Of a stretch of DNA of 38,970 bases, positions 10,401-30,658 are shown piece by piece. Source of the DNA: Candidatus Jorgensenbacteria bacterium GWA1_54_12 (GTDB lineage: Bacteria; Patescibacteriota; Minisyncoccia; UBA6257; GWB1-50-10). The stretch spans positions 63,241-102,210 of the forward strand of contig MFKH01000010.1 in assembly GCA_001779505.1 (NCBI GenBank). Reading direction: 5' to 3'. A program made the translations under genes and the position numbers. The notes under the pieces were generated by a model. The model had not been told where the DNA came from and did not search any database. It saw nothing but the letters and a program-made list of their open reading frames with translations. Numbering within the stretch: the first letter of the stretch is position 1; the number at the start of each line of letters is the position of its first letter.

Positions 10401-10964
10401 ACGACACCGGGAACCGGCGCGGGCATTACCGTTGCTCGGTTCAAGGTGACGAACATGAGCGGGAGCATCCCTGTCTATCTCTCCACGAGCACGTTCCAGT
10501 TCACCCAGAACGGCTCGGCGACAACAACCATGCATGTGACAGGCACTTCTACGTTCAAGATTCTCGCATCCGCGCAGAACGGTGGAGAAACTGACACGTC
10601 AGGCTGGAACAGCGGGGTTGGTTACTACGCAGCGAGAGGCACGACGGGCGCATCAACAACCATCTCCTTCACGACCTCTACCAACGCGACTTCTGGCATC
10701 ACGCCGACTGAAGCGAAGGTTGATGCAAACAGCCACCGCTATCTGACGATTCAGACAACGGTGGTGTCGGCGACGAACGACACGTATCAGCTGGCAGTGA
10801 GCGCCTTGGGCAATATCCTCTTCAACGTGTTTGAGAGCGATATAGGCCTGAGCGGTAACTACAATGGCACGTCAGGCGGAGATGTCGACACGACAGACCT
10901 CATCACAAGTCTTTACGTGGACGGCACGCCGGTCAGTGACATGGTTACTGCGGGCGGGAGCTAG
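7464..10964 (+). CDS. giant secreted cell-surface (S-layer-like) protein with N-terminal peptidoglycan-binding domain and repeated beta-rich modules
   Basis: 1166 aa. Signal peptide MSTLKKLAIVALSVVTIVSTSGAASA. PG_binding_1-like segment GVSGADVKCLQQYLNGAGY...YYGTKTQAAVKKWQDAMGL. The rest is T/S/G/V-rich with about six divergent repeats. Confidence 0.85.
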   Translation: MSTLKKLAIVALSVVTIVSTSGAASAVTLSELQGLSRDELLSLLTQLLAGGTTTTTGGTSSVACTFTRNMYPGVSGADVKCLQQYLNGAGYTISTSGAGAPGSESEYYGTKTQAAVKKWQDAMGLSYGSWGGYFGPSSRAKFSQVATGGTTTGGGAVIVVPSGTGLVVQTASDSPAKRTLGTGTAFNPVLKVQFAAGSSDVSITNVVLNKSGFVANTNVSGIDVVDAKGVRHGNVVTAVNADNTVNIPFSTPIVVKAGTSETLTFRMNLAGGDYSGTISLSLASVTSNASSVSASFPIAGVAMDVVNGGNSLASTTLDVLTSTGSSTLNIDAASLQEITKFRIQETSSNEAVYLHSMTLYNYGNADDTDYKDVTLEAQDGTVLAVAQPSGQWTVFNLSSNPYKIDKGQTKDFTVKAKLVDGATKTLRLTVYNDYDLDLRGATTGISVIPAAGASVDSSFPIGEGANLQTFGSGSVSLSRASDSPSSSVAPGASGVSLAKFIARPTGESYELRKVSFYIASTGKALTGTVYVKINGATVYSAAASTFTSDSTADTVTLSSYTTLTAATDNTIEIVTDIQSSATSSSSYQVKSFDLVQAKRLITGDIVDPTSSTGIDGYSLSVSSGALAITTLVQPPAGSVVAGTVNYELARFTLNASAGGENVKVSKITITHNGSSTVDTNLGNYKLFVDVDGDGLFSDESAQATTASTDSFTSEDGADDTLAFNLQTQLEVETSKPLTLSLRADVKSGAVTAETHRFNVAESVTAIGKGTGNTVTPTYAGTGQTQTLVGAGQMTLSLLSGSGKSPSTSQVKVVGTDEVVFAFKVTSQYESMKTRALRITATSTTSLTTSTLSNIRLYDGDPASSGKLVDTKQQFDWCNTSYCYVDFTSDVDIFGVGEGGNGPITTTGKEVYVKAKINDLSNLPKWGDNFGFSIAATTHVSSTGVSSASTTITITGTPTASGYTNVAPAYVKIEKVNVPDTTPGTGAGITVARFKVTNMSGSIPVYLSTSTFQFTQNGSATTTMHVTGTSTFKILASAQNGGETDTSGWNSGVGYYAARGTTGASTTISFTTSTNATSGITPTEAKVDANSHRYLTIQTTVVSATNDTYQLAVSALGNILFNVFESDIGLSGNYNGTSGGDVDTTDLITSLYVDGTPVSDMVTAGGS

Positions 10965-14192: not shown

Positions 14193-15188
14193 ATGAAAAG
14201 AGCTCTCATTACCGGTATAACTGGTCAAGACGGGTCGTACCTTGCCGAACTTCTCCTTGAGAAGGGGTATGAAGTCCGCGGCACAATCCGCCGCTCGAGC
14301 CATTTCAACACCTCCCGCATAGACGATTTGTTTGAAAATGAGCGATTCGGCACATACTATGCCGACCTTATGGACCCAATTTCCATAGGGAACGCAATAT
14401 CGGATTTTGCTCCAGATGAGATTTATAACCTGGGAGCGATGAGTTATGTGAAAGTATCGTTTGACATTCCTGCCTTTACCATCCAAACGAATGCGGTGGG
14501 ACTGCTCAATATTCTGGAATATGTGCGGGGACATGCCCCTCAAACGAAAATATATCAGGCATCAAGTTCAGAAATGTTCGGCGCATCGCGCAGCAAACCA
14601 CCTTTCAACGAGCAATCGGAATTCAGGCCTCAAAGCCCGTATGGAGTCGCAAAACTTGCCGCATTTCATCTTATGCGCAACTATCGCGAGGGGTACGGCC
14701 TTTTTGCCGCGACAGGAATCCTTTTCAATCACGAAAGCCCCCGGCGCGGAGAGGTCTTCGTTACGCGGAAAATTACCCGTGGCGTGGCGGCAATATTGAA
14801 GGGAAAGACCAAGAAACTGGAGTTCGGAAACCTGGACTCCGTGCGCGATTGGGGGCATTCAAAAGATTACGTAAAAGCGATTCATCTCATTCTCCAGCAG
14901 GAAAAACCGGACGAGTACATTGTTGCAACAGGAGAGGCGCACAGCATCAAGGAAGCGCTTGAGTTCTGTTTCAACGAAGTAGGATTGAATTGGAAGGATT
15001 ATGTGGAAACAAACCCGCGATATTTCCGTCCGAACGAGGTGCCGTACCTCCAAGGAGACGCAAGCAGAATCCGCGCCTTGGGATGGAAGCCGGAGTACGG
15101 ATGGAAAGAGACACTGCGGGAGATGCTACAGCACGATATTGAGCACTTTGATGGATTCCCGTCCCGGTTCAGGAAAATAGAGAAATAA
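14193..15188 (+). CDS. gmd: GDP-mannose 4,6-dehydratase
   Basis: MKRALITGITGQDGSYLAELLL, YQASSSEMFG, SPYGVAKL, LFNHESPRRG and GNLDSVRDWGHSKDYV. Start at ATG 14193. Confidence 0.93.
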   Translation: MKRALITGITGQDGSYLAELLLEKGYEVRGTIRRSSHFNTSRIDDLFENERFGTYYADLMDPISIGNAISDFAPDEIYNLGAMSYVKVSFDIPAFTIQTNAVGLLNILEYVRGHAPQTKIYQASSSEMFGASRSKPPFNEQSEFRPQSPYGVAKLAAFHLMRNYREGYGLFAATGILFNHESPRRGEVFVTRKITRGVAAILKGKTKKLEFGNLDSVRDWGHSKDYVKAIHLILQQEKPDEYIVATGEAHSIKEALEFCFNEVGLNWKDYVETNPRYFRPNEVPYLQGDASRIRALGWKPEYGWKETLREMLQHDIEHFDGFPSRFRKIEK

Positions 15189-15977
15189 ATGGAAAAAGGA
15201 GACCGCGGATCGGCTCTCAAGAAAATACGGGTGGAAGTGCTCAACATGGTGCGTGCCGCAGGGGAAGGGCACGTACCGAGCGCATTTTCTGTTATAGAAA
15301 TCTTATATGCATTGTATTCTCGCATGGGCGAGCGCGACAGGTTTTTCTTGAGTAAGGGGCATGCAAGTACGGCGCTCTACGCAACACTGGCGCACTTTGG
15401 TGCTTTGAATGAGCGCGAACTTCAAACATATGGGAAATATAATTCCGCGCTCGGCGGGCATCCTCATCGGAACGAGAAGAAAGGAATCATGAATTCTTCC
15501 GGTTCGCTGGGACACGGATTTCCTGTGGCCGCCGGCTATGCGCTCTCGCTCCGTTTGAAGCGGGGCGGCGGGCGCGTTTTTTGCCTCGTGGGGGACGGGG
15601 AATGCAATGAGGGGACGATATGGGAAACAGCACTCCTCGCGTCGCACCTGAAGCTTCGTGAATTGGTGTGCGTTGTGGATAATAACGGCTCACAGACAAG
15701 AGCTGTGCCTTCGGGAGACCTTGCGGAGAAATTCAGGAGTTTTGGATGGAACGCGGTGGAAGTTAAAAACGGACACCGAGTGAACGATTTAGAAAACGCG
15801 ATATTCGCAGAACGCGGCGATGACGAGAGGCCGTATTGCGTCGTTGCGCATACAAAAAAAGGAAAGGGAGTCCGAGAGATGGAGGAAAACCATTTTGCTT
15901 GGCATCACCGGGCACCCACTCCGGAAGAATACGAACGGTTCGTCAAGGAGATTATGGGGAGCCCCGAAGAAGCATGA
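15189..15977 (+). CDS. transketolase, N-terminal (ThDP-binding) subunit
   Basis: GHVPSAFSVIEILYALY, GSLGHGFPVAAG and LVGDGECNEGTIWE. The ATG directly abuts the gmd stop. Confidence 0.9.
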   Translation: MEKGDRGSALKKIRVEVLNMVRAAGEGHVPSAFSVIEILYALYSRMGERDRFFLSKGHASTALYATLAHFGALNERELQTYGKYNSALGGHPHRNEKKGIMNSSGSLGHGFPVAAGYALSLRLKRGGGRVFCLVGDGECNEGTIWETALLASHLKLRELVCVVDNNGSQTRAVPSGDLAEKFRSFGWNAVEVKNGHRVNDLENAIFAERGDDERPYCVVAHTKKGKGVREMEENHFAWHHRAPTPEEYERFVKEIMGSPEEA

Positions 15978-16888
15978 GAAAGCAATTTGCAAAGACCCTT
16001 CTTGAGACCGGCGCGGACGAGCGCGTTGCGGTGCTTTTGGGAGACCTTGGCCATTTCCTCTTGCGTGATTTTGAAGCGCGCTACCCTTCGCGGTTTTTCA
16101 ATATGGGCATTGCGGAACAATCTATGATGAGCATGGCGGCAGGACTCGCCTTGGGAGGATTTTTCCCCGTTGTGCACAGCATTACGCCATTCATCACCGA
16201 ACGGTGTTTTGAGCAGATAAAAGACGATTTGTGTTACCAGAACACCGGTGTGAATATTGTGAGCGTCGGGAGTGCATTTGACTATGCCGCACTCGGGTGC
16301 ACTCACCATTCATATGACGATATAGGCATATTGCGCACTCTTCCGCGGATGCAAATCGTGTACCCTGCCGCACCTCATGAATTTGACATCCTTTTTAAGG
16401 AGGCGTATGCGAATGGCGCGCCGACTTATTTCCGTCTGCCGGAACATATCCACTCGCTTTCCACCCACCCGAAGTTCGGCGAGGTGGAACAGATGCGTGA
16501 AGGGAACGTTGTGACCGTGATTGCCGCAGGTCCGCAGCTCCAAAACGCGTGGGAAGCGGCTGAAGAAGCTGCGCGCGCAGGCGTGTTGTGCGACTTGTGG
16601 TACGTGACGACCATAAAACCCCTAAGCGCCGCATCGGAAAAGGCGATTGCGGCGAGCGTCGCAAAAACAGGGAAGGTGGTGACTGTTGAGGAACATTCTG
16701 TTATTGGCGGTATCGGAGACCTTATTGCCCTCATATGCGGAGGAGAACGGTTCACACATGTCCGCCTCGGCGTCAACGATAAATTCTTGGAGTGTTACGG
16801 AACATACGAGGAACATTGTAAGGCAAACGGTCTCACAAAAGAAAACATATTAAAAGCAATCCATGACAGCGCGGGAAGAAATCGTTAA
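15974..16888 (+). CDS. transketolase, C-terminal (pyrimidine-binding) subunit
   Basis: FFNMGIAEQSMMSMAAGLALGG and GCTHHSYDDIGILRTLP. ATGA overlap with the N-terminal subunit gene. The ORF-track start 15836 is rejected as an out-of-context extension. Confidence 0.9.
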   Translation: MRKQFAKTLLETGADERVAVLLGDLGHFLLRDFEARYPSRFFNMGIAEQSMMSMAAGLALGGFFPVVHSITPFITERCFEQIKDDLCYQNTGVNIVSVGSAFDYAALGCTHHSYDDIGILRTLPRMQIVYPAAPHEFDILFKEAYANGAPTYFRLPEHIHSLSTHPKFGEVEQMREGNVVTVIAAGPQLQNAWEAAEEAARAGVLCDLWYVTTIKPLSAASEKAIAASVAKTGKVVTVEEHSVIGGIGDLIALICGGERFTHVRLGVNDKFLECYGTYEEHCKANGLTKENILKAIHDSAGRNR

Positions 16889-18419: not shown

Positions 18420-19376
18420 ATGACAAAAACAAAACATATCACGCCAGCCGACTTTGAAGCTGTATGGGGCGGACCCTTGAGCGATTATGTAAAGGGGAAA
18501 ATAGAGAAATACGACCTGCGCTACGAGGAATGCACCCGAGAGGAGCGTGACAAGTGGCTTCGCTTCATCTGCGAGGTCCTTTTACATCCGCGCGAACTCA
18601 TAAAAGCGGGGTCTCACCGAGAGCAGGAGTGGGAAAAAGGATGGAGTGAAAACGCAAAGGCGTTTGCCGCGTCCCGAAATATCTCGGATATCTATCCGCA
18701 CTACTTCGGGAAATATCCGGTAGGGCGGTGGCGCGGCGATTTGGTGAAGCCGGTAAGCGCGGACTATGAACGCCTCATGTTTGCCGTCATCCAGGACTGG
18801 CTTTTTGACATGTACCTGAAAGACACGAATGCCATTTATGAATTCGGGTGCGGTACGGGGCATAACCTGCTCCGCGCACGCGCGGCGAACCCTCGCGCAG
18901 CGCTCATGGGGTTTGATTGGGCAGAGTCGTCAGGAGACACCATTCGTAGCATGCGGGAAGCGGGAATTTTGGATAACGTTTTTTTCTCGCGGTTCGATTT
19001 CTTTAATCCCGATGCTACTGTTGCGTTTTCTCCCAATACAGGCGTCTACACGGCTGCGGCGCTTGAGCAAATCGGCAACAAATTTGAACCATTCCTCCAA
19101 TTTCTTCTCAAGAAGAAACCGAAAGTATGCGTGCACATAGAACCTATTGCCGAGCTTTTGGACGAAACGAAGCTCTTAGATTACCTTTCCTTGGAGTACT
19201 TCAAGGCGCGGAATTATCTCTTCGGTTTCCTCACGCGCCTGCGGGAACTTGAAAAGGAAGGATACATAACAATTCACCGCGCACAGTGCACACACATTGG
19301 CAGCTTGTTTATAGAAGGATATTCGGTTGTCGTATGGTCTCCGCGTTCGCTTGAAGAGCCGAGAAAAAGCGATTAG
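18420..19376 (+). CDS. class I SAM-dependent methyltransferase with unknown N-terminal domain
   Basis: Motif I IYEFGCGTGHNLL in the middle of a 318-aa protein. I do not recognise the roughly 140-aa N-terminal region. Confidence 0.7.
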   Translation: MTKTKHITPADFEAVWGGPLSDYVKGKIEKYDLRYEECTREERDKWLRFICEVLLHPRELIKAGSHREQEWEKGWSENAKAFAASRNISDIYPHYFGKYPVGRWRGDLVKPVSADYERLMFAVIQDWLFDMYLKDTNAIYEFGCGTGHNLLRARAANPRAALMGFDWAESSGDTIRSMREAGILDNVFFSRFDFFNPDATVAFSPNTGVYTAAALEQIGNKFEPFLQFLLKKKPKVCVHIEPIAELLDETKLLDYLSLEYFKARNYLFGFLTRLRELEKEGYITIHRAQCTHIGSLFIEGYSVVVWSPRSLEEPRKSD

Positions 19377-19387
19377 AGTAGGAAAAC

Positions 19388-20185
19388 ATGTCAAAAACAG
19401 CAATCGGCATTATTGGTGTCGGCTACGTTGGCGGCGCGCTTCACGGGTGGTTTAAAAGTCAGCCGGAGCGCTTTGACGTTTTTGTATACGACAAATTCAA
19501 GCGTCTTGGCTCTCCAGATGAAGTGAATCGTGCCAGCATCATTTTTGTTGCGACACCAACCCCTTTCCGCGAAGACGCAGGGGGGTATGACGATTCTGCA
19601 ATCCGCGACGCGCTTGCAAATATCCGCGACGGAAAGATGATAGTCATCAAGTCATCGGTCACCCCGGGCTCAACCGAACGGTTCCAAAAGGAGCATCCGC
19701 AGAAGATTCTCCTCTTCAGTCCGGAGTTCCTCAAGGCGCAGAACGCCGCGAGTGATTTCGTGAACTCCGAGCGCCAGATTGTAGGATATGCGGATGAGAA
19801 ACACAGGGGAAAAGCTGCGGAGATACTCGCCATCCTGCCTCCAGCTCCCTACATGAAAGTGATGCGCGCAACCGAAGCGGAGATGGTGAAATTTTTCGGC
19901 AACACATACCTTGCGACGCGCGTGGTGTTTGCCAATCAAATCTACGACCTCTGCGAGAAACTGGGTATTGATTACAACGCGGTGAAAGAAGGAGTCGGGC
20001 AGGACCCGCGCATCGGCACGAGCCACCTGGAAGTTCTGCATGGTGAGCACCGAGGCTATGGCGGCCTGTGTTTCCCAAAAGACATGAAGGCGTTTATCCA
20101 ATTCGCCGAAGCGCTTGGAGTAGACCTCGCTCTTCACAAAAGAGCGGATGAGGTGAACGAGAAACTGAAAAAAATACGGATATAA
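19388..20185 (+). CDS. nucleotide-sugar (UDP-glucose/GDP-mannose) dehydrogenase family protein lacking the C-terminal domain
   Basis: IGIIGVGYVGGAL (NAD fold), FVATPTP, SPEFLKAQNA, and catalytic Cys context GYGGLCFPKDMKAF. The protein ends about 40 aa later at 265 aa. Confidence 0.8.
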   Translation: MSKTAIGIIGVGYVGGALHGWFKSQPERFDVFVYDKFKRLGSPDEVNRASIIFVATPTPFREDAGGYDDSAIRDALANIRDGKMIVIKSSVTPGSTERFQKEHPQKILLFSPEFLKAQNAASDFVNSERQIVGYADEKHRGKAAEILAILPPAPYMKVMRATEAEMVKFFGNTYLATRVVFANQIYDLCEKLGIDYNAVKEGVGQDPRIGTSHLEVLHGEHRGYGGLCFPKDMKAFIQFAEALGVDLALHKRADEVNEKLKKIRI

Positions 20186-20204: not shown

Positions 20205-20948
20205 ATGCCATACATGAAGTACATGTCGAACGTGAGGGAAATTGTGAAACGCATTTTGAGCTGGGGTAGCCCAGAAAAGTATGTCCGGAAACTGCATGAG
20301 AGTAAGAAATATTTGGAGGCATACAGCGAACATACCGATTCACGCATCACGACTGAACCTCACAATGCAATCGGTGGGTCGTGGGAAGAAATGGGAAAAC
20401 TCCAGTTTGATTTTCTAGTGAAGAGAGGTCTCAGGCCGCACCATACGCTGCTTGACGTGGGGTGTGGCACCTTGCGGGGTGGGAGACATTTCATTAAGTA
20501 CTTGAACGCTGGGAATTATACAGGCTTTGATATTTCCCCGAAGGCGATAGAATACGGCAGGAAACTTGTGGAAGAAGAAAGGCTTACGGACAAGATACCG
20601 GTGCTTTTCGTGAGTGAGGAGAAAAATCTGAAATTTGAAGAACTCCGAGGAAAAACGTTTGATTTTCTTCTCGCTCAATCGGTTTTAACGCACCTTCCCC
20701 CAGAGTCGATTGAAGAACTTTTTGAGAATATCGGTAAAGTCATGAAGGAGAAATCCTCCTTTTACTTCACGTATTTTGATGGGGAACGGTACAAACATTT
20801 TTCCATAGAAGATTTCCGCTATCCATTCTCTCACCTTGAGTCGCTAGCGAAGGAGCACGGGTTTTCCGTAAAGGATTACTCAAACGAATATCCGCACCCG
20901 ATAGGGCAGAAAATGATTGAAGTAGTCCGCCATGGCGCAGGTCTCTAA
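20205..20948 (+). CDS. class I SAM-dependent methyltransferase
   Basis: LLDVGCGTLRGGRHF (motif I), DISPKAIEYG and FDFLLAQSVLTHLP. Confidence 0.8.
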   Translation: MPYMKYMSNVREIVKRILSWGSPEKYVRKLHESKKYLEAYSEHTDSRITTEPHNAIGGSWEEMGKLQFDFLVKRGLRPHHTLLDVGCGTLRGGRHFIKYLNAGNYTGFDISPKAIEYGRKLVEEERLTDKIPVLFVSEEKNLKFEELRGKTFDFLLAQSVLTHLPPESIEELFENIGKVMKEKSSFYFTYFDGERYKHFSIEDFRYPFSHLESLAKEHGFSVKDYSNEYPHPIGQKMIEVVRHGAGL

Positions 20949-21909
20949 AAAAGTTGCCGCGGAGCTGTATCAGAAGGCATACCTCATCCGCAGCGCGGAG
21001 CGGAAAATATGCGACAACTATCCGAAAGACGTCATGCAGTCGCCGATGCACATGTCTATGGGGGAGGAGGGGATAGTCGCAGGCGTGTGCCAGGCGCTCA
21101 AAAAGAAGGACCAAGTGTTCGGCACGTATCGGAGCCACGGTCTGTACCTAGCGAAGACCGGCGAAACGGATGACTTTTTTGCCGAGATGTATGGAAAAGT
21201 TTCCGGCATTGCGAACGGCAAGGCGGGGTCTATGTTTTTATCGCGGCCCGCGGCGGGACTCATAAGCGTCTCGGCCGTTGTAACAACAGCCATCCCAGTC
21301 GCTGTTGGAGCGGCGTACGCGAACAAACTGAAGAGAAACGGGAAAATAACTGCGGTCTTCTTTGGCGATGGAGCATTGGAGGAGGGAGCGTTTTGGGAAA
21401 GTTTGAATTTTGCCTGTTTGAAACAGGTGCCGATACTTTTTGTTTGCGAAGACAATGGGTTTGCCATTCAAACTCCTCTGCGCGCCCGGCGGGGTTACGC
21501 GTCAATTATCGACATCGTGAGCAGGTTTAAGAGCAATGTATTTCAAGGAGAAACAACCAACCCTGAAGTTATCTACGGTACCGCGCTGAAAGCAATTGCG
21601 GCAGTGAAGAAAACGCGCAAGCCAGCCTTTCTGCGCTTCAAGTATTACCGGTATTTGGAACACGTGGGCGTCCGCGACGATTTTGCCGTTGGCTACCGTC
21701 CCCGGAACGAATTCAAGAAATGGGAGAAAATTGATCCGGTCAAAGTTATGCGGAAGAATCTTTTGAGAAAGGGCATGACAGAGAAGACGGTGGTGGGGAT
21801 GGAGAAAGCGATAGAAAAGAAAGTGGAACGGAGCGTTGCGCGCGCCGAAAAGGCTCCGTTCCCGCCGAGGTCAGATTTGTATAAAGACATTTTCTATGAA
21901 AAGAAATGA
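20932..21909 (+). CDS. ThDP-dependent dehydrogenase E1 component, alpha subunit (PDH/acetoin-DH type)
   Basis: MHMSMGEEGIVAGV, YRSHG and FFGDGALEEGAFWESLNFACLKQVPILFVCEDNGFAIQTP (ThDP motif). Confidence 0.88.
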   Translation: MAQVSKKVAAELYQKAYLIRSAERKICDNYPKDVMQSPMHMSMGEEGIVAGVCQALKKKDQVFGTYRSHGLYLAKTGETDDFFAEMYGKVSGIANGKAGSMFLSRPAAGLISVSAVVTTAIPVAVGAAYANKLKRNGKITAVFFGDGALEEGAFWESLNFACLKQVPILFVCEDNGFAIQTPLRARRGYASIIDIVSRFKSNVFQGETTNPEVIYGTALKAIAAVKKTRKPAFLRFKYYRYLEHVGVRDDFAVGYRPRNEFKKWEKIDPVKVMRKNLLRKGMTEKTVVGMEKAIEKKVERSVARAEKAPFPPRSDLYKDIFYEKK

Positions 21910-22948
21910 ACGTTTCATAAGTTATAAGGACGCTCTGCGGGAGGCGCTCTTGCAGGAAATGGAACGGGATCGCCGGGTTTTTGTTTACGGTCTCGGTGTG
22001 CCAGATAACAATGCCGTCTTTGGCACGACAAGGGGATTGAAAGAGCGGTTCGGGCCGGAACGGGTTTTTGACACGCCGCTCTCCGAAGACGCAATGACGG
22101 GAATCGGGTTGGGCGCAGCCATTAATGGTCTGAAGCCCGTTCACCACCACATCAGAGTTGATTTCCTGCTTTTGGCCTTCAATCAGCTGGCGAACATGGT
22201 TTCCATTTTGCGGTACGGTTCTGGGGGAAAGGTAACGATTCCCTTCGTCATACGGGCAATTATTGGCAGAGGATGGGGACAAGGTCTCCAACATTCAAAA
22301 TCAATGCAGTCGGTATTCGCGCACATTCCCGGGCTCAAGGTGATCATGCCTTCAACGCCGCACGATGCAAAGGGGCTTCTTACTGCCGCTATACGGGATG
22401 AAAATCCGGTCATATGTTTGGAGCACCGGTGGCTATATGACCAGGAAGGAAATGTTCCTTTGAAACAATTTACCGTTCCCTTAGGGAAGAGCAAGGTTCT
22501 GCGGAGAGGAAATGATGTAACTGTTGTTGCAACTTCCTGGATGAATATTGAAGCGAGGCACGCCTCTGAAATCTTAAAGAAAAGGGGCGTGAGCGTTGAA
22601 ATTGTAGATCCGCGAACCATACAGCCGTTGGATGAAGCCACCATCATTCGTTCGGTAAAAAAGACCAGCCACTGCATTGTCGCAGATAATGACTGGCTGA
22701 ACTGCGGCTTCAGCGCAGAAGTGGCGGCAAGGGTTTCGCGGGAATGCTTTGGCGAACTCAAATCGCCGGTTGAGCGGATCGGTTTTGCGCCGACGCCGTG
22801 CCCCATGACGCGGGTTCTAGAAGACGAGTTTTACCCGAACGCAGGAGATATTGTGAGAGCCATTGAAAAAGCGCTGAAATTGAAGCCAATGGACCTCTCA
22901 AAAGAACGATTCTACAGCCACGAGAACAGATTCAAGGGTCCTTTCTAA
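21896..22948 (+). CDS. ThDP-dependent dehydrogenase E1 component, beta subunit
   Basis: ISYKDALREALLQEMERDRRVFVYG and FDTPLSEDAMTGIGLGAAINGLKP, followed by a transketolase-C-like tail. Start ATG 21896 overlaps the alpha-subunit stop by 14 nt. Confidence 0.88.
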   Translation: MKRNERFISYKDALREALLQEMERDRRVFVYGLGVPDNNAVFGTTRGLKERFGPERVFDTPLSEDAMTGIGLGAAINGLKPVHHHIRVDFLLLAFNQLANMVSILRYGSGGKVTIPFVIRAIIGRGWGQGLQHSKSMQSVFAHIPGLKVIMPSTPHDAKGLLTAAIRDENPVICLEHRWLYDQEGNVPLKQFTVPLGKSKVLRRGNDVTVVATSWMNIEARHASEILKKRGVSVEIVDPRTIQPLDEATIIRSVKKTSHCIVADNDWLNCGFSAEVAARVSRECFGELKSPVERIGFAPTPCPMTRVLEDEFYPNAGDIVRAIEKALKLKPMDLSKERFYSHENRFKGPF

Positions 22949-24225
22949 TGAGAATATCTCAAAATCTTAAGAGCGTTTGTTTTTTTCTCTTCCTCGCGGC
23001 AGTACTTATCGCTCTTATCGTTTTTCTTAATCTATCCCTCATGCAGGCCGCAAAAGACGGCGGGGACAGTAGTTGGTATGTTGCAATGGCTGAAGGTCGT
23101 CTCCACGAGGTCATAGAGCCCTACTCCGCGCGTTTTCTGCACACGTCGCTTGCCGGCTGGCTGAGCAAGCTCTTCTCAACGGATGCGGCGCATGGTTTTT
23201 TGGTTCTTGCCGTCTTTTCGGTTTTTGCATTCCTCCTTATAGGCGGATTTCTTCTCAAGAAAACGATTCCTTCCCCCTTGCTCCTCATGTTTCTTTTCGC
23301 CGTGCCGTATCTTGTCATGGTTTTAAGGAGGAATATCCAGCCGGATGCATTTTCGCTTTTTCTCACAGCTCTCTTTTTCCTCCTTTTGTTTTATGAGAAA
23401 GAAAAGACGGCGCTTATTACCCTCTTCCTTTTGTTTCTTACGCGCGAAACGACAATTCTTTTGGGTGTCATTCTTGTTGCCGTATCGTGGTTTCGCGGGA
23501 AGAAGCTATTTGCCCTCGGGGCGCTTGTCGTCGTAATCATCTCATTCCTGGTGAGCGGTTCCATAAGCGGGATAGGTCAGCCGAATTCGCACGACCTGAA
23601 CCCTCTTGTTTTCATGATGTTCAAATTTCCGTACCACTTCCTGGCAAATGGTATGGGTGTGCGATTATGGGTGACGGGCTACGATTTTTGCGAGCCAGTG
23701 CTTAAATTGCAGCTACCGCCGCTTGGTGTATTGGGGTCAATACGCGAAGTAGGCTTTTGTGGATTTGATGCCGCCCTGCCTTTAAGAAACTATATCGCGC
23801 TTTTCTCGACGTTCGGCGTCATGCCTCTCGCATTCGTCTATGCGTTCGCAAAAAAGGGCTGGCGCACCATGAAAGAACTTCCGTTTTGGTTTCCGGTTGC
23901 GGTCATATATGGTCTTGCCATGTACGCGGTAAGCATTCCTGCTGGAACGGGTGTTTCACGCATTGTTGGTTACGCATGGCCTGTGTTCCTGCTTGCGACG
24001 CCGTTTCTTGTGGCACCGTTTGTAAGGGAAAATAGGCGGTTTCTTGCAAAGTTCGCCGGCACTCAGGTGTTCGCCGCATGGATGCCATTTATTGTCCAGG
24101 AAGCGGGAGGTTTCGCATCGGTTCCGGTTATGTTTTTCACGCTCGCAGCGCTCGGTGCAGCGTATGTATATACCTTTTTACTTCTTAAGAAAACTTTCTC
24201 ATCTCATTTTCCGGTGATAGGATAA
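22948..24225 (+). CDS. polytopic membrane protein (candidate GT-C-type glycosyltransferase or glycan polymerase)
   Basis: 425 aa, many hydrophobic helices, and an acidic first loop (AAKDGGDSSWYVAMAEG). I could not assign a family by eye. Confidence 0.7.
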   Translation: MRISQNLKSVCFFLFLAAVLIALIVFLNLSLMQAAKDGGDSSWYVAMAEGRLHEVIEPYSARFLHTSLAGWLSKLFSTDAAHGFLVLAVFSVFAFLLIGGFLLKKTIPSPLLLMFLFAVPYLVMVLRRNIQPDAFSLFLTALFFLLLFYEKEKTALITLFLLFLTRETTILLGVILVAVSWFRGKKLFALGALVVVIISFLVSGSISGIGQPNSHDLNPLVFMMFKFPYHFLANGMGVRLWVTGYDFCEPVLKLQLPPLGVLGSIREVGFCGFDAALPLRNYIALFSTFGVMPLAFVYAFAKKGWRTMKELPFWFPVAVIYGLAMYAVSIPAGTGVSRIVGYAWPVFLLATPFLVAPFVRENRRFLAKFAGTQVFAAWMPFIVQEAGGFASVPVMFFTLAALGAAYVYTFLLLKKTFSSHFPVIG

Positions 24226-26261: not shown

Positions 26262-26657
26262 ATGAAAATCAAGAGGCTTCAGCCAGAGTGCAATCTGGCA
26301 ACGGTTCGGGACGGGCGCGGCGGCATCTTCACGTTTTATCCAGAGAAACCGGTCGTTGAGTTCAACTTCCAGTTCATCAACAAAAACACTATCCGGGGGA
26401 ATCACTATCACCCGGAGTTTGACGAATACTATCTCTTCACCGAAGGAAACGGCGTTGTCGTCACAAGAAATGACGAAGGCAAAGAGGAATTCCTCTATGT
26501 AGGCACGGGGGACTGCCTCTACATACCACAGGGCGTTTCCCATGTCACGTACGCCATTACAGATATCAAATATGTGACGTTTCTGACCAAGAAATGGAAC
26601 GACTGCGAGAAACCGATTGTCCACGAGGATTTGGGAATGGGAGCGGCGCCGAAATGA
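26262..26657 (+). CDS. small cupin-fold protein, sugar-nucleotide epimerase/isomerase-like (RmlC/WxcM-like)
   Basis: 131 aa with DGRGGIF, RGNHYH and YIPQGVSHV. Start ATG 26262 lies 10 nt after the upstream stop. Confidence 0.7.
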   Translation: MKIKRLQPECNLATVRDGRGGIFTFYPEKPVVEFNFQFINKNTIRGNHYHPEFDEYYLFTEGNGVVVTRNDEGKEEFLYVGTGDCLYIPQGVSHVTYAITDIKYVTFLTKKWNDCEKPIVHEDLGMGAAPK

Positions 26658-27661
26658 ACGTTTCTCGAAAATTGAAATTCGGCGTGTTAGGCTGTTCACG
26701 CGTTGCCGGGCGCGGGGTCGTGCCGGCCATCTTAAACTCCGCTTTCTCGGAACTCGGCATAATTGCGGGGAGGTCGCCGGAGGAGGCGAAGGAATTCGGC
26801 GCCCAGTTCGGATGCGGCTCGTTCGGGACATACGAAGACGTTTTGAAAAGCGACGTGGACGTCGTATACGTCTCGCTTCCCAATGCGCTCCACGAGGAGT
26901 GGAGCGTGAAGGCGGCGAACGCGGGGAAGCACGTCTATTGCGAGAAGCCTGCAGGGACGTCATACGCCGCCGCGAAAAGTATGGTTGAAGCGGCAAAAGC
27001 AAACAGGGTGCGGCTCATAGAAGGCCTCATGTTCAGATATCATCCGCAAAACGCGCGGGTGAAGGAACTGATAAGGAACGGCGCTCTGGGAGAAGTTCTG
27101 AAATTCGACGGCTCTTTCGGATACGCCATGCCGGGAAGGGAAGAAAGTCAGATGAAACGTGAATCTCAGGGCGGGTCGCTCCATGCCTGCGGAGTATATC
27201 CCGTCGCGGCGAGCAGGATAGTATTCGGAGAGGAGCCGATGAGTGTCTTTTGCACATTGAAGATTGATGAAGCAAGCGGTGTTGACCTAGAAGCACATCT
27301 CCTTCTGAAATACTCGAGCGAGAGAACGGCCTTCGTTTCGTCCCTCTTCGGTTCGTATTATGAGTCAACATACAGCGTATTAGGCACGAAAGCTCGCGTG
27401 CGGCTCCCACGGGCATATGCTGTCCCGCGGGATATGGAAACAAAAATGTTTTTCGATGCAGATGACAGGGTGACCGAGACGGTGTTTCCGCCGGCAGACC
27501 ATTTTAAGTTGCTCTTGGATGATTTCTGCGGCGAGATTCTGAAAGGCAAAGAGAGTGCTATAGATTACGAAGGGGATCTCCTGGCCCAGGCGAAGGTTAT
27601 TGAAGCGGCACGGATATCTGCAGAAAAAGGGTGCCCGGTGAATATCTCGAAAATAATATGA
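26654..27661 (+). CDS. Gfo/Idh/MocA-family NAD(P) sugar oxidoreductase
   Basis: LKFGVLGCSRVAGRGVVPAI Rossmann N-terminus and an EKP motif (HVYCEKPAG). ATGA overlap with the cupin gene. Confidence 0.88.
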   Translation: MNVSRKLKFGVLGCSRVAGRGVVPAILNSAFSELGIIAGRSPEEAKEFGAQFGCGSFGTYEDVLKSDVDVVYVSLPNALHEEWSVKAANAGKHVYCEKPAGTSYAAAKSMVEAAKANRVRLIEGLMFRYHPQNARVKELIRNGALGEVLKFDGSFGYAMPGREESQMKRESQGGSLHACGVYPVAASRIVFGEEPMSVFCTLKIDEASGVDLEAHLLLKYSSERTAFVSSLFGSYYESTYSVLGTKARVRLPRAYAVPRDMETKMFFDADDRVTETVFPPADHFKLLLDDFCGEILKGKESAIDYEGDLLAQAKVIEAARISAEKGCPVNISKII

Positions 27662-28413
27662 AGGAGTTGGACAAGGAGTTGGACATAGTTATCCCCGTCT
27701 ACAATGAGGGGGAGAATATAGTCGAGACGCTCATTGCCCTGAAACAGAGCGTAAAAACATCCTTCCGAGTGCTTATCTGTTATGACTTCAATGAAGACAA
27801 TACCTTGCCGGCAGTGCGCGATGCCAGGGGTGCGGGATGCGACGTGCAGCTGGTGAAAAACAGGGGAAAGGGAGTGCATCACGCGATCATGACCGGGCTC
27901 GGGGAAACAGAGGCAGACGCCGTGCTTATGTACCCAGCAGACGAGTCCTACAATACGGTCATCATTGACGCGATGTACACGAAGCTCCGGGAGGGGAATG
28001 ATGTAGTCGGCGCAAGTAGGTTTATGAAAGGGGGTGCCATGAAGGGCGGTCCCTTCCTGAAGTCGCTCGTTCTGCGCGCGGCCGCGTTTACACTCAAGCG
28101 GTTCGGGGGTCTTGGCGCGAGCGACGCGAGCTATGCGCTGAAGATGTTTTCACGGCGCATCCTTGATACGGTGGAGATTGAGTCAACAGATGGCTTTACG
28201 TTTGCGATTGAACTTCTTGTGAAATGCCACCGGTTAGGATGGAAAGCTGCCGAAGTGCCGGCACGCTGGCTCATGCGCGAGAAGGGACAAAGCCGTTTTA
28301 ATTTTAGAAAATGGTTGCCGCATTACTTCAAATGGTTTTTATATGCGTTTGCAACAACGTACCTAAGAAGGGGGTCGGAGACAGTTAAGCTGAAGTCGGG
28401 AGCAGAAATATAA
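27658..28413 (+). CDS. family 2 glycosyltransferase, polyprenyl-phosphate sugar synthase-like (DPM1/ArnC/GtrB-like)
   Basis: LDIVIPVYNEGENIVETL, then an acidic YPADESY motif. At 251 aa, its size and N-terminus are typical of the Dpm1/GtrB group. ATGA overlap upstream. Confidence 0.8.
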   Translation: MKELDKELDIVIPVYNEGENIVETLIALKQSVKTSFRVLICYDFNEDNTLPAVRDARGAGCDVQLVKNRGKGVHHAIMTGLGETEADAVLMYPADESYNTVIIDAMYTKLREGNDVVGASRFMKGGAMKGGPFLKSLVLRAAAFTLKRFGGLGASDASYALKMFSRRILDTVEIESTDGFTFAIELLVKCHRLGWKAAEVPARWLMREKGQSRFNFRKWLPHYFKWFLYAFATTYLRRGSETVKLKSGAEI

Positions 28414-28456
28414 GCCCTCTTTTCTTTTCCACCCGCATTGATTAAGATGTTGGGCA

Positions 28457-30658
28457 ATGAAATACGACCTTTGTATTATCGGAGGAGCCGGGCACGTAGG
28501 ACTCCCCCTGGGAGTGGCCTTTGCAAATAGCGGTGTGAGAACGGCGATTTTCGACGTTAACCAGGAGGCTCTTGAAAAAATTAGGTCCGGCCAGTTTCCG
28601 TTCAAAGAGAGAGGCGGAAATGAAGCGCTCCAGACAGCCTTGAGAGCAAATACTCTTTTTGTCACCGACTCCCCGGAATCAATAAGCGATTCCAAATTTA
28701 TAATTATTGTCGTTGGCACGCCGATTGATGAATATCTGAGTCCGAATCATAGTCTTACCACGAAACTGCTGGATAAGTACTTTGATTATTTTAGGGATGG
28801 GCAAATTGTAATCCTACGGAGTACGGTTTACCCCGGCACAACTGAAAAAGTTCAAAATTATTTTCAGAAGAGGGGTAAACAAGTGAAACTAGCCATGTGT
28901 CCCGAAAGAATCTCTCAAGGGTACGCCTTGGAAGAATTTAAAGTTTTACCTCAAATTATTTCGGTCATTGACGACTCCGCTTTTGAAGAAGTTTCTTCCT
29001 TGTTCAAAAAAATCGCCTCCGCAGAAATTATCCGTATCAAACCAATTGAAGCGGAACTTGCGAAACTTTTTACCAATGCATGGCGTTACATAAAGTTCGC
29101 CGTCGGAACGCAGTTTTTTACCATAGCCCATGACCATGGTTTGGATTATCACCAAATCGAGAAAGCTATGAAGAAAGATTATGCCCGAAACAACGATTTA
29201 CCTGCCCCCGGTTTTACCGCCGGACCCTGTCTCTTAAAAGATACTATGCAGCTTGCGGCTTTCACCAACAACAATTTTTTATTGGGACACGCGGCTATGC
29301 TCGTGAATGAAGGCCTTGTCAACCATATAATCCAGGGCCTGAAGCGTGAATATCCCGAATTTCTCAAAGACAAAACACTCGGCATTTTGGGGATGGCCTT
29401 CAAGGCCGATAACGATGACCACCGCGACTCGCTTTCATACAAACTTCGCAAAATCGGACGAGTTGAGTGTAAAAACGTGCTTTGCACAGATGTTTACATT
29501 AAGGATCCTAGCTTCGTGCCACTTGAAACGGTACTTAAAGAATCCGACATTTTGGTTTTGGCGACGCCGCACGCGAAGTATGCAAGTATAGACCCTCGCA
29601 AATATCCAGATAAGAAATTCATTGATATATGGAATTTCTGGGGTGCCCAGAAAACAAAAAGGATACTTATCACGGGGGCAGCCGGTTTCATTGGCTATCA
29701 CCTTGCATTGCATCTTCTTGAGAAATACGGCAACGAGTGCGAGCTTGTGCTCGTGGACAATCTTCAAAAGGAGGGCATGGACGAGGAGCTCAAAAAACTC
29801 ATCGGGAATCCTCAAATTTCATTCAAGAACCTTGATCTCACCGACCCCCACGCGTACGGAGAGATTGGAGAGAATTATGACTATGTCTATCACCTTGCCG
29901 CGATTAATCACACTCAACTCTTTTATGAAATACCGCATAAGATATTGCGGACAAACACGCTTTCTCTCATACACATGCTGGATTGGTTCAAGGAAAAGAG
30001 CAACAAGGGAAAATTCTGTTTTACCTCATCAAACGAGGCGTACGCGGGCGCTTTGAACGCGTTCGGAACACTGCCTCTGCCGACACCGGAGGATGTGCCA
30101 CTCGTCATAGAAGATCCTAAAAATCCGCGCTGGTCGTACGCCGCAACGAAACTCGTCGGCGAACTTTTCGTCAATCATTACGCGAAAATGTATAATTTCA
30201 GGGCACTCATCGTCCGTCCGCACAATTTCTACGGTCCGCGGGCGGGGCATGGGGGACATGTCATACCCGACTTCGCAGAACGTATCGCAAGGCAGATTGA
30301 CCCATTCCCCATCTATGGAGCGGATGATACACGAACATTCTGCTATATTTCTGATGCAGTACGGGCGATGTCGGCGCTCATGGACTCTCCTCAAACCGAC
30401 AAACAACCGATTGAAACGGTACATATCGGTGACTTCGAGGAAATCACCATGCAGGAACTTGCTCACAAGATGTTTGAGACAGCCAATTGGAGACCGCAGT
30501 CGCTTGATATTAAAAACTCTCCCTCCGGAAGCGTAAAGAGGCGTTTAGCCAATATAACGAAGCTTCAGGGCCTGACTGGCTGGAGGCCGGAAGTATCCCT
30601 TATGGAAGGATTGAAAAGAACATATGACTGGTACCTCAAGCACCCCCGCGGTGCATAG
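28457..30658 (+). CDS. fusion protein: nucleotide-sugar dehydrogenase (all three domains) + extended SDR epimerase/dehydratase/decarboxylase
   Basis: N-terminal half: CIIGGAGHVGLPLG, VGTPID, catalytic Cys GFTAGPCLLKD, and C-domain GMAFKADNDDHRDS. C-terminal half from about aa 400: ILITGAAGFIGYHL and YAATKLVGE. Confidence 0.88.
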   Translation: MKYDLCIIGGAGHVGLPLGVAFANSGVRTAIFDVNQEALEKIRSGQFPFKERGGNEALQTALRANTLFVTDSPESISDSKFIIIVVGTPIDEYLSPNHSLTTKLLDKYFDYFRDGQIVILRSTVYPGTTEKVQNYFQKRGKQVKLAMCPERISQGYALEEFKVLPQIISVIDDSAFEEVSSLFKKIASAEIIRIKPIEAELAKLFTNAWRYIKFAVGTQFFTIAHDHGLDYHQIEKAMKKDYARNNDLPAPGFTAGPCLLKDTMQLAAFTNNNFLLGHAAMLVNEGLVNHIIQGLKREYPEFLKDKTLGILGMAFKADNDDHRDSLSYKLRKIGRVECKNVLCTDVYIKDPSFVPLETVLKESDILVLATPHAKYASIDPRKYPDKKFIDIWNFWGAQKTKRILITGAAGFIGYHLALHLLEKYGNECELVLVDNLQKEGMDEELKKLIGNPQISFKNLDLTDPHAYGEIGENYDYVYHLAAINHTQLFYEIPHKILRTNTLSLIHMLDWFKEKSNKGKFCFTSSNEAYAGALNAFGTLPLPTPEDVPLVIEDPKNPRWSYAATKLVGELFVNHYAKMYNFRALIVRPHNFYGPRAGHGGHVIPDFAERIARQIDPFPIYGADDTRTFCYISDAVRAMSALMDSPQTDKQPIETVHIGDFEEITMQELAHKMFETANWRPQSLDIKNSPSGSVKRRLANITKLQGLTGWRPEVSLMEGLKRTYDWYLKHPRGA

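Follow-up and report, generated by a model that had tools for sequence, protein, structure and literature searches.

The stretch of DNA considered here, called the window throughout, comprises 38,970 nucleotides (nt) of contig MFKH01000010.1 from Candidatus Jorgensenbacteria bacterium GWA1_54_12, a groundwater metagenome contig that recurs among assemblies of Rifle-type samples. It is taken up by a single long operon of envelope and glycan genes on the + strand. Within this operon lies a pair of adjacent genes for proteins that resemble the alpha and beta subunits of the E1 component of 2-oxo acid dehydrogenases, which bind thiamine diphosphate (ThDP). The two proteins probably form a stand-alone ThDP carboligase of the alpha-KADH2 type, represented by AviB1/AviB2, Pau11/Pau12 and KbDH-alpha/beta, that would add a two-carbon (C2) branch to a ketosugar. 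The kind of enzyme is known; what is new is a member of a large sister lineage found in the surface-glycan loci of uncultivated bacteria.

The preliminary description of this DNA, made from the letters alone, had recognised both genes, and their open reading frames (ORFs) and Pfam domains bear this out. E1 alpha matches Pfam E1_dh over 297 of the 300 profile positions (3.4e-46), and E1 beta matches Transket_pyr (9.4e-31) and Transketolase_C (2.2e-32). These matches, and those of the 247-residue methyltransferase encoded immediately upstream, are far beyond chance. The GDG...EDN motif already noticed in E1 alpha is seen in the translation as FFGDGALEEG...LFVCEDNGF and is invariant across 22 members of the clade described below. 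The clade shares a conserved GxGGSMH motif with Pau11 and canonical E1 alpha, but in the window and in locus L010, its closest relative, this reads GKAGSMF, with Phe102 (21235-21237) for His. The three gene overlaps that had been described were all confirmed by reading the sequence: 17 nt between the methyltransferase ORF and E1 alpha (20932-20948), 14 nt between E1 alpha and E1 beta (21896-21909), and 1 nt between the E1 beta stop and a membrane protein ORF that starts at 22948 within TAATG. The start of E1 beta given by the ORF finder, a TTG at 21836, was rejected as marking only the maximal ORF; the homologues begin at the position of 21896.

In a dehydrogenase complex, E1 is accompanied by a lipoyl acyltransferase (E2) and a dihydrolipoamide dehydrogenase (E3). 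Precomputed Pfam tables were available for every called gene of the window and for about 10 kb of contig past each end (about 59 kb), and further Pfam scans took in most + strand ORFs from 12417 on. Biotin_lipoyl, 2-oxoacid_dh and Pyr_redox_2 were all absent from the window and from the flank of about 10 kb on either side. A tblastn search with Pfam-verified E2 and E3 queries gave no match at E<1e-3 either, over 354 kb made up of the window and 20 related loci. With the same queries, five outgroup loci give an E2 and one an E3; E2 directly follows E1 alpha/beta in L030, L041, L042 and L046, and L030 also has E3. The earlier statement that the window holds neither partner thus stands by both methods. 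Neither subunit reaches the curated models for true dehydrogenases: E1 alpha scores 233 bits against NCBIfam PDH_E1_alph_y (cut-off 393.85) and E1 beta 312.3 against PRK09212 (cut-off 321).

E1 alpha is 34% identical to Pau11 and E1 beta 45% identical to Pau12. Pau12 was found through a plasmid protein search, by way of a protein from Streptomyces griseofuscus pSGRIFU1 (73% identity), and the Pau12 contig gave Pau11 and a Pau7-type aldo-keto reductase; that search also returned tail-to-tail matches in Azospirillum plasmids, in a sugar locus, and in pSGRIFU1. Trees were made by neighbour-joining (NJ) with limited sampling, and Pau11/Pau12 stand in for AviB1/AviB2 and KbDH. The references for true complexes were five loci with a tblastn-detected E2 beside the pair, among which three E2 proteins and one E3 were also Pfam-verified, together with the human and Geobacillus proteins. 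One clade contains the window pair, all glycan-locus pairs, Pau11/Pau12 and a Kibdelosporangium homologue, with bootstrap values of 100/100 for alpha and 98/100 for beta, and leaves out the E2-linked E1, human and Geobacillus proteins. The Pau11/Pau12 grouping is unchanged in a wider tree of 45 sequences from which the tail columns were removed. A phylogeny had been suggested in the preliminary description as a check, and the pair does group with these homologues of AviB1/AviB2, apart from E1 linked to E2 and E3.

The clade carries signatures that were defined in the present analysis and not taken from the literature: a C-terminal tail of E1 beta, the motif G[RK][GS]WGQG and the motif YR[YW]xEHVG. 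The tail is an extension of 20-25 residues that ends in F-x-G-P-F/Y; in the window it runs for 23 residues beyond the point where the canonical beta subunit stops. All complete E1 beta proteins of the close clade, in which E1 alpha is 42-71% identical to that of the window, have it, as do four remoter pairs (L024, L027, L028 and the second pair of L021), Pau12 and the proteins from Azospirillum and S. griseofuscus, and 117 of 120 Pau12-type proteins end in F-x-G-P-[FY]. It is missing from about 40 other E1 beta proteins and from the human and Geobacillus proteins. As a marker of all glycan-locus E1 beta proteins the tail was rejected: those of Solidesulfovibrio magneticus pDMC1 and L026 nest in the clade and are tail-less. 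The clade beta subunits further share G[RK][GS]WGQG immediately before the active-site His (GxGWGQG in the window, in place of the canonical loop), and His85 and Arg87 replace residues that are hydrophobic in canonical E1. The tail, WGQG and the H85 and R87 changes occur in no E2-linked E1 beta examined. In E1 alpha, YR[YW]xEHVG is common to the clade and Pau11 and takes the place of YRxxGHS, so that the window reads EHVG for the GHS motif of the canonical phosphorylation loop; Arg186 is common to the window and Pau11.

These features bear on whether the pair is instead an ordinary E1 of a pyruvate, acetoin or branched-chain complex, with E2 and E3 elsewhere in the genome and its place in a glycan operon incidental, which we regard as highly improbable. 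Both subunits are full-length homologues of the heterotetrameric 2-oxo acid dehydrogenase E1 structures, including those of pyruvate dehydrogenase (PDH) and branched-chain 2-oxo acid dehydrogenase (BCKDH). They share fold and domain order with canonical E1 (Geobacillus PDH E1 1w85, human PDH E1 1ni4, BCKDH E1 and AcoA/AcoB), as well as the ThDP motif, the beta-subunit Glu and both active-site His residues. Glu64 of E1 beta corresponds to the cofactor-activating Glu59 of the Geobacillus beta subunit, His133 of E1 beta to beta-His128, and His244 of E1 alpha to alpha His271. The catalytic residues had been tried as a test for lost lipoyl chemistry, which was rejected, both His residues being kept; these residues, which ThDP carboligation uses as well, have no discriminating value, and the retained Glu and His fit a carboligase and a dehydrogenase equally well. 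Such an ordinary E1 would also be compatible with a search for E2 and E3 that reached about 59 kb of the contig. Unlike canonical E1, however, the window pair has no nearby E2 or E3, scores under the curated PDH cut-offs and carries the clade signatures, which E2-linked E1 beta proteins lack. Glycan genes overlap tightly with both ends of the pair, related pairs sit in glycan loci of more than ten phyla with no E2 or E3 across the 354 kb searched, and the trees place the pair with Pau11/Pau12.

Sugars with two-carbon C-branches are rare; most of the known cases are in antibiotics, besides a few lipopolysaccharides. Their formation by E1-type pairs has so far been documented mainly in antibiotic-producing actinomycetes. 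AviB1/AviB2 and Pau11/Pau12, enzymes of this E1 alpha/beta type, are proposed to introduce a C-4 acetyl branch from pyruvate, which in paulomycin biosynthesis is reduced by the aldo-keto reductase Pau7 (PMC4753412); the branch would be that of paulomycose and eurekanate. A 2025 review names the group alpha-KADH2, describes transfer of C2 from pyruvate to C3 or C4 of ketosugars, and counts about 120 clusters with such genes (PMC12247030). KbDH-alpha/beta performs pyruvate-ketone ligation in vitro (PMC12247030). The AviB1/AviB2 precedent to which the preliminary description appealed agrees with the literature, which adds in-vitro proof for one member of the family, KbDH-alpha/beta (PMC12247030, PMC4753412, PMC10338323). 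Its comparison with YerE holds for the logic of the reaction: YerE and ErwE, of yersiniose and erwiniose in lipopolysaccharide, add an acyl anion from a 2-oxo acid to an NDP-4-ketosugar by way of ThDP (PMC9306805). They belong to another ThDP family, however, as single-chain flavoproteins resembling acetolactate synthase, and are analogues of the window pair, not relatives, alike only in the cofactor-binding fold. The TPP_enzyme_N/M/C architecture of YerE-type proteins is absent from the window pair, which consists of E1_dh and transketolase-type domains.

The closest parallel is Pau11/Pau12. There, as in the window, two adjacent genes encode an E1_dh alpha subunit and a Transket_pyr/Transketolase_C beta subunit without E2 or E3, among genes for the tailoring of nucleoside diphosphate (NDP) sugars, and the beta tail and motifs are held in common. 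Pau7 accompanies Pau11/Pau12, and relatives of the window pair often have aldo-keto reductases too (PMC4753412, PMC12247030). In contrast, the window pair is part of a large sub-clade of its own, whose members lie in surface-glycan loci, with a Wzy_C-type protein and GT2, GT4 and GT-C glycosyltransferases, instead of in actinomycete antibiotic clusters. The hosts of this sub-clade are uncultivated Patescibacteria, Omnitrophota and diverse Proteobacteria. Unlike the Pau11/Pau12 product, that of the window pair would join a cell-envelope glycan, apparently via a lipid carrier.

The family is broad. E1 alpha matches 3375 proteins at E<=1e-20, the best at about 60% identity, and the best matches with a named source come from Patescibacteria, Omnitrophota and a metagenome-assembled genome (MAG) labelled Nanoarchaeota. 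A scan of species-representative genomes gave 590 relatives. The close clade, at 42-57% identity, is found in Peribacteria, Levybacteria, Sungiibacteriota, Saccharibacteria, Omnitrophota, Magnetococcales, Beta- and Deltaproteobacteria, Phycisphaerales, Gemmatimonadetes, Syntrophales and Hyphomicrobiales, and remoter relatives in Pelagibacter and Rhodospirillales. More than ten phyla have relatives in nucleotide-sugar loci.

Genes were called and clustered in the relatives' loci and the recurrent clusters annotated, and 19 clade loci were compared with 65 other E1 alpha/beta loci. Extended short-chain dehydrogenases/reductases (SDRs) of NDP-sugar type are neighbours in 16 of the 19 clade loci and 5 of the 65 others. 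Aldo-keto reductases (8 against 2), RmlC-like cupins (8 against 0) and GHMP sugar kinases (8 against 1) follow the same pattern. A 318-residue methyltransferase-like protein of the kind encoded in the window at 18420-19376 occurs in seven clade loci and none of the others. B12-radical SAM proteins, nucleotidyltransferases, DegT aminotransferases, NUDIX proteins and split transketolases are also recurrent in the clade loci. Two loci have two E1 alpha/beta pairs each: a Sungiibacteriota MAG (L017; 5134-6972 and 9986-12284), whose second pair is very divergent and tail-less, and a Gemmatimonadetes MAG (L021; 1908-3993 and 9980-11972), in which both beta subunits have the F-K-G-P-F tail. Many pairs in Burkholderiales (L031 6020-10809, L033, L040 and others) are 30-35% identical to that of the window and are followed by genes of tripartite ATP-independent periplasmic (TRAP) transporters (DctP, DctQM). 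No E2 was found by tblastn within 10 kb of the TRAP-associated betaproteobacterial pairs; these form a different orphan E1 alpha/beta group and were left out of the references for true complexes.

The conserved surroundings are best seen in locus L010, the closest relative, with subunits 71% and 80% identical to those of the window (features of the window are listed in Table 1). Its gene order is cupin, GFO oxidoreductase, E1 alpha, E1 beta, a 423-residue membrane protein, a 408-residue protein, a glycosyltransferase of family 2 (GT2), a fusion of GT2 with a C-methyltransferase, and an NDP-sugar dehydrogenase. Apart from the 408-residue protein and the C-methyltransferase, all are 54-86% identical to window counterparts (22948-24225 and 26262-30658). 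The cupin is 86% identical to its L010 counterpart two genes before E1 alpha, the GFO protein 62% identical to the one immediately before E1 alpha, and the membrane protein has a 54%-identical homologue directly after E1 beta. The GT2 is kept in L010 (68%) and in locus L095, and the dehydrogenase::SDR fusion is conserved in both. L095 has the same block with a sugar C-methyltransferase of the TcaB9/TylCIII type (PF08421, PF08484), and no E1 alpha/beta in the available part of its contig, while L010 holds both the C-methyltransferase and the E1 pair. Since the C-methyltransferase stands for the E1 pair in one locus and accompanies it in the other, the block appears to make a nucleotide ketosugar whose C-branch comes from methylation, from the E1 pair or from the two together.

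Table 1. Features of the window, with positions counted from its first nucleotide.
Feature	Position	Strand	Basis or remarks
GDP-mannose 4,6-dehydratase	14193..15188	+	TIGR01472 gmd 4.5e-122, 407.5 bits (cut-off 415)
Split transketolase	15189..16888	+	N 15189-15977, Transketolase_N 2.2e-32; C 15974-16888, Transket_pyr, Transketolase_C
Methyltransferase-like protein, 318 aa, undescribed family	18420..19376	+	Weak methyltransferase matches
Class I S-adenosylmethionine (SAM) methyltransferase, 247 aa	20205..20948	+	Pfam Methyltransf_25/12/11
E1 alpha-like ThDP-binding subunit, 325 aa	20932..21909	+	ATG 20932, TGA 21907-21909; Pfam E1_dh
ThDP/Mg binding motif of E1 alpha	21364..21456	+	G145-D146-G147 ... 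E173-D174-N175; translation
E1 beta-like subunit, 350 aa, pyrimidine-binding and transketolase C-terminal domains	21896..22948	+	ATG 21896, TAA 22946-22948
Subfamily-specific C-terminal extension of E1 beta, residues 328-350	22877..22945	+	Ends F-K-G-P-F-COOH
Polytopic membrane protein, 425 aa, GT-C-fold candidate	22948..24225	+	AlphaFold2 (AF2) model, Foldseek
Small cupin, 131 aa, candidate NDP-ketosugar epimerase/isomerase	26262..26657	+	Cupin_1 1e-07; weak dTDP_sugar_isom, FdtA
GFO/IDH/MocA oxidoreductase, KijD10-like NDP-sugar C-3 ketoreductase	26654..27661	+	PDB 3rbv 'Sugar 3-ketoreductase'
GT2 resembling polyprenyl-phosphate sugar synthases	27658..28413	+	Weak NCBIfam matches (PpgS, ArnC, AglJ, DPM-type), below cut-off
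NDP-sugar 6-dehydrogenase::extended SDR fusion	28457..30658	+	TIGR03026 249.9 (cut-off 189.8)

The operon encodes candidate suppliers of an NDP-ketosugar: gmd, several extended SDRs, the KijD10-like 3-ketoreductase and the dehydrogenase::SDR fusion. The GFO protein has 3rbv as its best PDB match, over its full length (E 3e-41), and KijD10 is an enzyme of a branched deoxysugar pathway. The PDB matches of the fusion's SDR half include UDP-glucuronate decarboxylase 1, which makes the fusion a candidate source of an NDP-4-keto sugar of the uronate decarboxylase type. For eurekanate, it has been proposed that a 4-keto-pentose from a UDP-glucuronate decarboxylase undergoes ThDP-dependent acetylation (PMC10338323), and this logic of a decarboxylase product and an E1 alpha/beta pair resembles the combination of fusion and pair in the window. 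A 265-residue homologue of NDP-sugar dehydrogenases at 19388-20185 has the N-terminal and central domains without the C-terminal UDP-binding domain; it is either a remnant left by truncation or a short, specialised form.

The membrane protein encoded directly after E1 beta has no Pfam or NCBIfam match. Its AF2 model, a confident one (pLDDT 86.5, pTM 0.86), gives STT3, ArnT, ALG9/12, PIG-M and PglB, GT-C glycosyltransferases without exception, as top Foldseek matches, with probabilities of 0.95-1.0 and modest TM scores of 0.40-0.47, and judging from this fold it is probably a GT-C glycosyltransferase that uses a lipid-carrier-linked sugar donor. The family comprises 20 detectable members, most of them from Patescibacteria, and Asp40, which follows the first helix, is invariant in it. 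One database entry, P0241 (728 residues, precomputed PF02355), is 100% identical across 65% of the membrane protein query and looks like a chimera of assembly or gene calling.

The 318-residue protein has homologues at 31-48% identity, which directly follow E1 beta in L014, L082 and L018. Its methyltransferase signature is below threshold, neither Pfam nor NCBIfam has a model for it, and its best PDB matches span the SAM-binding core only. Copies lie in L007 (18302-19246), L014 (4403-5326), L016 (4631-5578), L082 (11988-12956) and L018 (4838-5773 and 11975-12961), and the family adjoins E1 beta or a split transketolase on the downstream side. The preliminary description had asked whether related loci keep the pair next to the same methyltransferases; the adjoining 247-residue enzyme was found beside no other E1 alpha/beta, its cluster (c16) consisting of the window's own contig copies, and it is unique to this contig.

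For the pyruvate donor, the acceptor sugar, the product, the position of the branch and the lipid-carrier route we infer the following scheme. The enzyme would decarboxylate pyruvate on ThDP, and the resulting hydroxyethyl-ThDP carbanion would attack the carbonyl carbon of an NDP-ketosugar made by the same operon, not a lipoyl group. The product would be a tertiary alcohol with a C-acetyl branch, which reductases or methyltransferases of the locus could later change. The downstream block, with its 6-dehydrogenase::SDR fusion, cupin and KijD10-like ketoreductase, would most likely provide the acceptor as a keto intermediate; an alternative is GDP-4-keto-6-deoxymannose made by the upstream dehydratase. 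The branched sugar might then be loaded onto polyprenyl phosphate by the GT2 and be transferred outside the membrane by the GT-C-like protein. The Arn (ArnA/ArnC/ArnT) and Gtr-type systems have a similar set of an NDP-sugar dehydrogenase with an SDR, a small GT2 and a GT-C membrane protein. Compared with them the matches in the window are weak: the GT2 is under all cut-offs, the GT-C protein is recognised by fold alone (TM about 0.45) and a flippase was not identified. Whereas Arn tailoring transaminates and formylates, the step in the window would form a C-C bond.

Formation of a C2 branch by an E1 pair lacking E2 and E3, as first suggested from AviB1/AviB2, draws support from the tree, the motifs, the failure to reach the NCBIfam cut-offs, the absence of E2 and E3 nearby and the sugar loci of the relatives. 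Several observations weigh against it. Identity to E2-linked E1 is nearly as high as to Pau11/Pau12 (29-33% for alpha and 40-41% for beta), so that the placement rests on NJ trees of limited sampling and on motifs derived here, and the pair and its immediate clade are known from sequence comparison, not from biochemistry. Within this genome the search for E2 and E3 extended as far as the contig segment given above, and the His residues needed for reductive acylation of lipoamide are kept. The SDR half of the fusion matches UDP-xylose synthases (UXS), 4,6-dehydratases and epimerases about equally and is not clearly a decarboxylase. Pfam finds no aldo-keto reductase, DegT protein or obvious branch-processing enzyme in the window, although its SDRs and methyltransferases could act on the branch. 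Finally, the Pau11/Pau12-like pair of pSGRIFU1 (L092 10986-16516), whose beta subunit is the one 73% identical to Pau12 and has the tail ...GFAGPY, adjoins a 1103-residue condensation-domain protein, an acyl carrier protein (ACP), a phosphopantetheinyl transferase (PPTase) and gamma-butyrolactone regulators instead of sugar genes. The subfamily thus seems not to be restricted to sugar acceptors, and may serve non-sugar ones too.

This last locus also speaks for a different chemistry within the same subfamily: extension of a chain at an aldehyde, for example at the oxidised C-6 of a hexose to give a higher-carbon sugar, use of a 2-oxo acid other than pyruvate, or a lipid-linked or non-sugar acceptor. 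We consider this unlikely, though a reasonable second choice. The context of the window leaves several possible acceptors, both a truncated (19388-20185) and a full (28457-) NDP-sugar dehydrogenase lie in the operon, the S. griseofuscus pair stands by a condensation-domain protein and an ACP, and the two pairs per locus in L017 and L021 suggest diversified specificities. However, the characterised and genetically supported members all add the C2 unit of pyruvate to a ring ketone (PMC12247030), and the KijD10-like and TcaB9-type partners of the block point to classical NDP-ketosugar intermediates.

The preliminary description had also called the pair a second ThDP module of the locus, and the other is the split transketolase, which begins on the base right after the stop of the GDP-mannose 4,6-dehydratase. 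Split transketolases have been proposed to make hydroxyacetyl branches, so far predicted only in 13 Streptomyces clusters (PMC12247030). The E1 pair might itself be a transketolase-like ketol transferase, or act together with the split enzyme, taking C2 from a ketose or hydroxypyruvate to give a hydroxyacetyl branch. The two enzymes belong to the same ThDP superfamily; their genes lie side by side in L007 and L016 and are found together in L018, L027 and the window. Yet E1-type alpha subunits decarboxylate 2-oxo acids, KbDH is limited to pyruvate (PMC12247030) and many clade loci hold the pair without any transketolase, which makes such a ketol transferase quite improbable.

If the pair is a pyruvate-dependent carboligase, surface-glycan loci employ the same type of enzyme that makes the branches of avilamycin, paulomycin and kibdelomycin; loci of this kind came to light in uncultivated groundwater bacteria, Pelagibacter and plasmids of Azospirillum. 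In a published overview, YerE-type enzymes are shown for lipopolysaccharide branching and alpha-KADH2 and transketolases for secondary metabolites (PMC12247030). Surface-glycan loci of uncultivated bacteria do not figure there as a setting for alpha-KADH2 (PMC12247030), although part of this may already be reported. Our more tentative proposal is that pairs with the F-x-G-P-[FY] tail are a large, horizontally mobile surface-glycan family for C-branched or higher-carbon sugars, and that the window locus combines acetyl and hydroxyacetyl branches and relies on a new GT-C family and on polyprenyl phosphate as the carrier. The family of tailed pairs could span Patescibacteria, Omnitrophota, Planctomycetota, Gemmatimonadota, Pelagibacter, many Proteobacteria and possibly DPANN archaea. 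Sugars of this kind are not described for these organisms in the literature reviewed, where the branching of surface glycans is of the YerE type only. If the window pair does work as a sugar-branching carboligase, unknown branched sugars are predicted in the envelopes of the carrier bacteria, and thousands of natural carboligases that form tertiary alcohols become accessible. The tail and the WGQG motif would distinguish them in annotation from ordinary dehydrogenase E1. The automatic names 'pyruvate dehydrogenase E1' and 'acetoin oxidoreductase' would otherwise point to a central metabolism that is probably missing from these organisms.

At 7464-10964, just ahead of the gene of Wzy_C type and the glycan operon, the window encodes a 1166-residue secreted protein rich in Ser, Thr and Gly, with an N-terminal PG_binding_1 domain, which is a plausible S-layer-like acceptor of the glycan. 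Pairs in plasmid sugar loci are also present in cultured hosts, namely S. magneticus RS-1 (pDMC1, L097) and Azospirillum ramasamyi (L093). The pDMC1 locus contains a NUDIX protein, a kinase, E1 alpha/beta, an SDR, a DegT protein, a nucleotidyltransferase, an annotated lipid-carrier-dependent glycosyltransferase and a SIS-domain protein.

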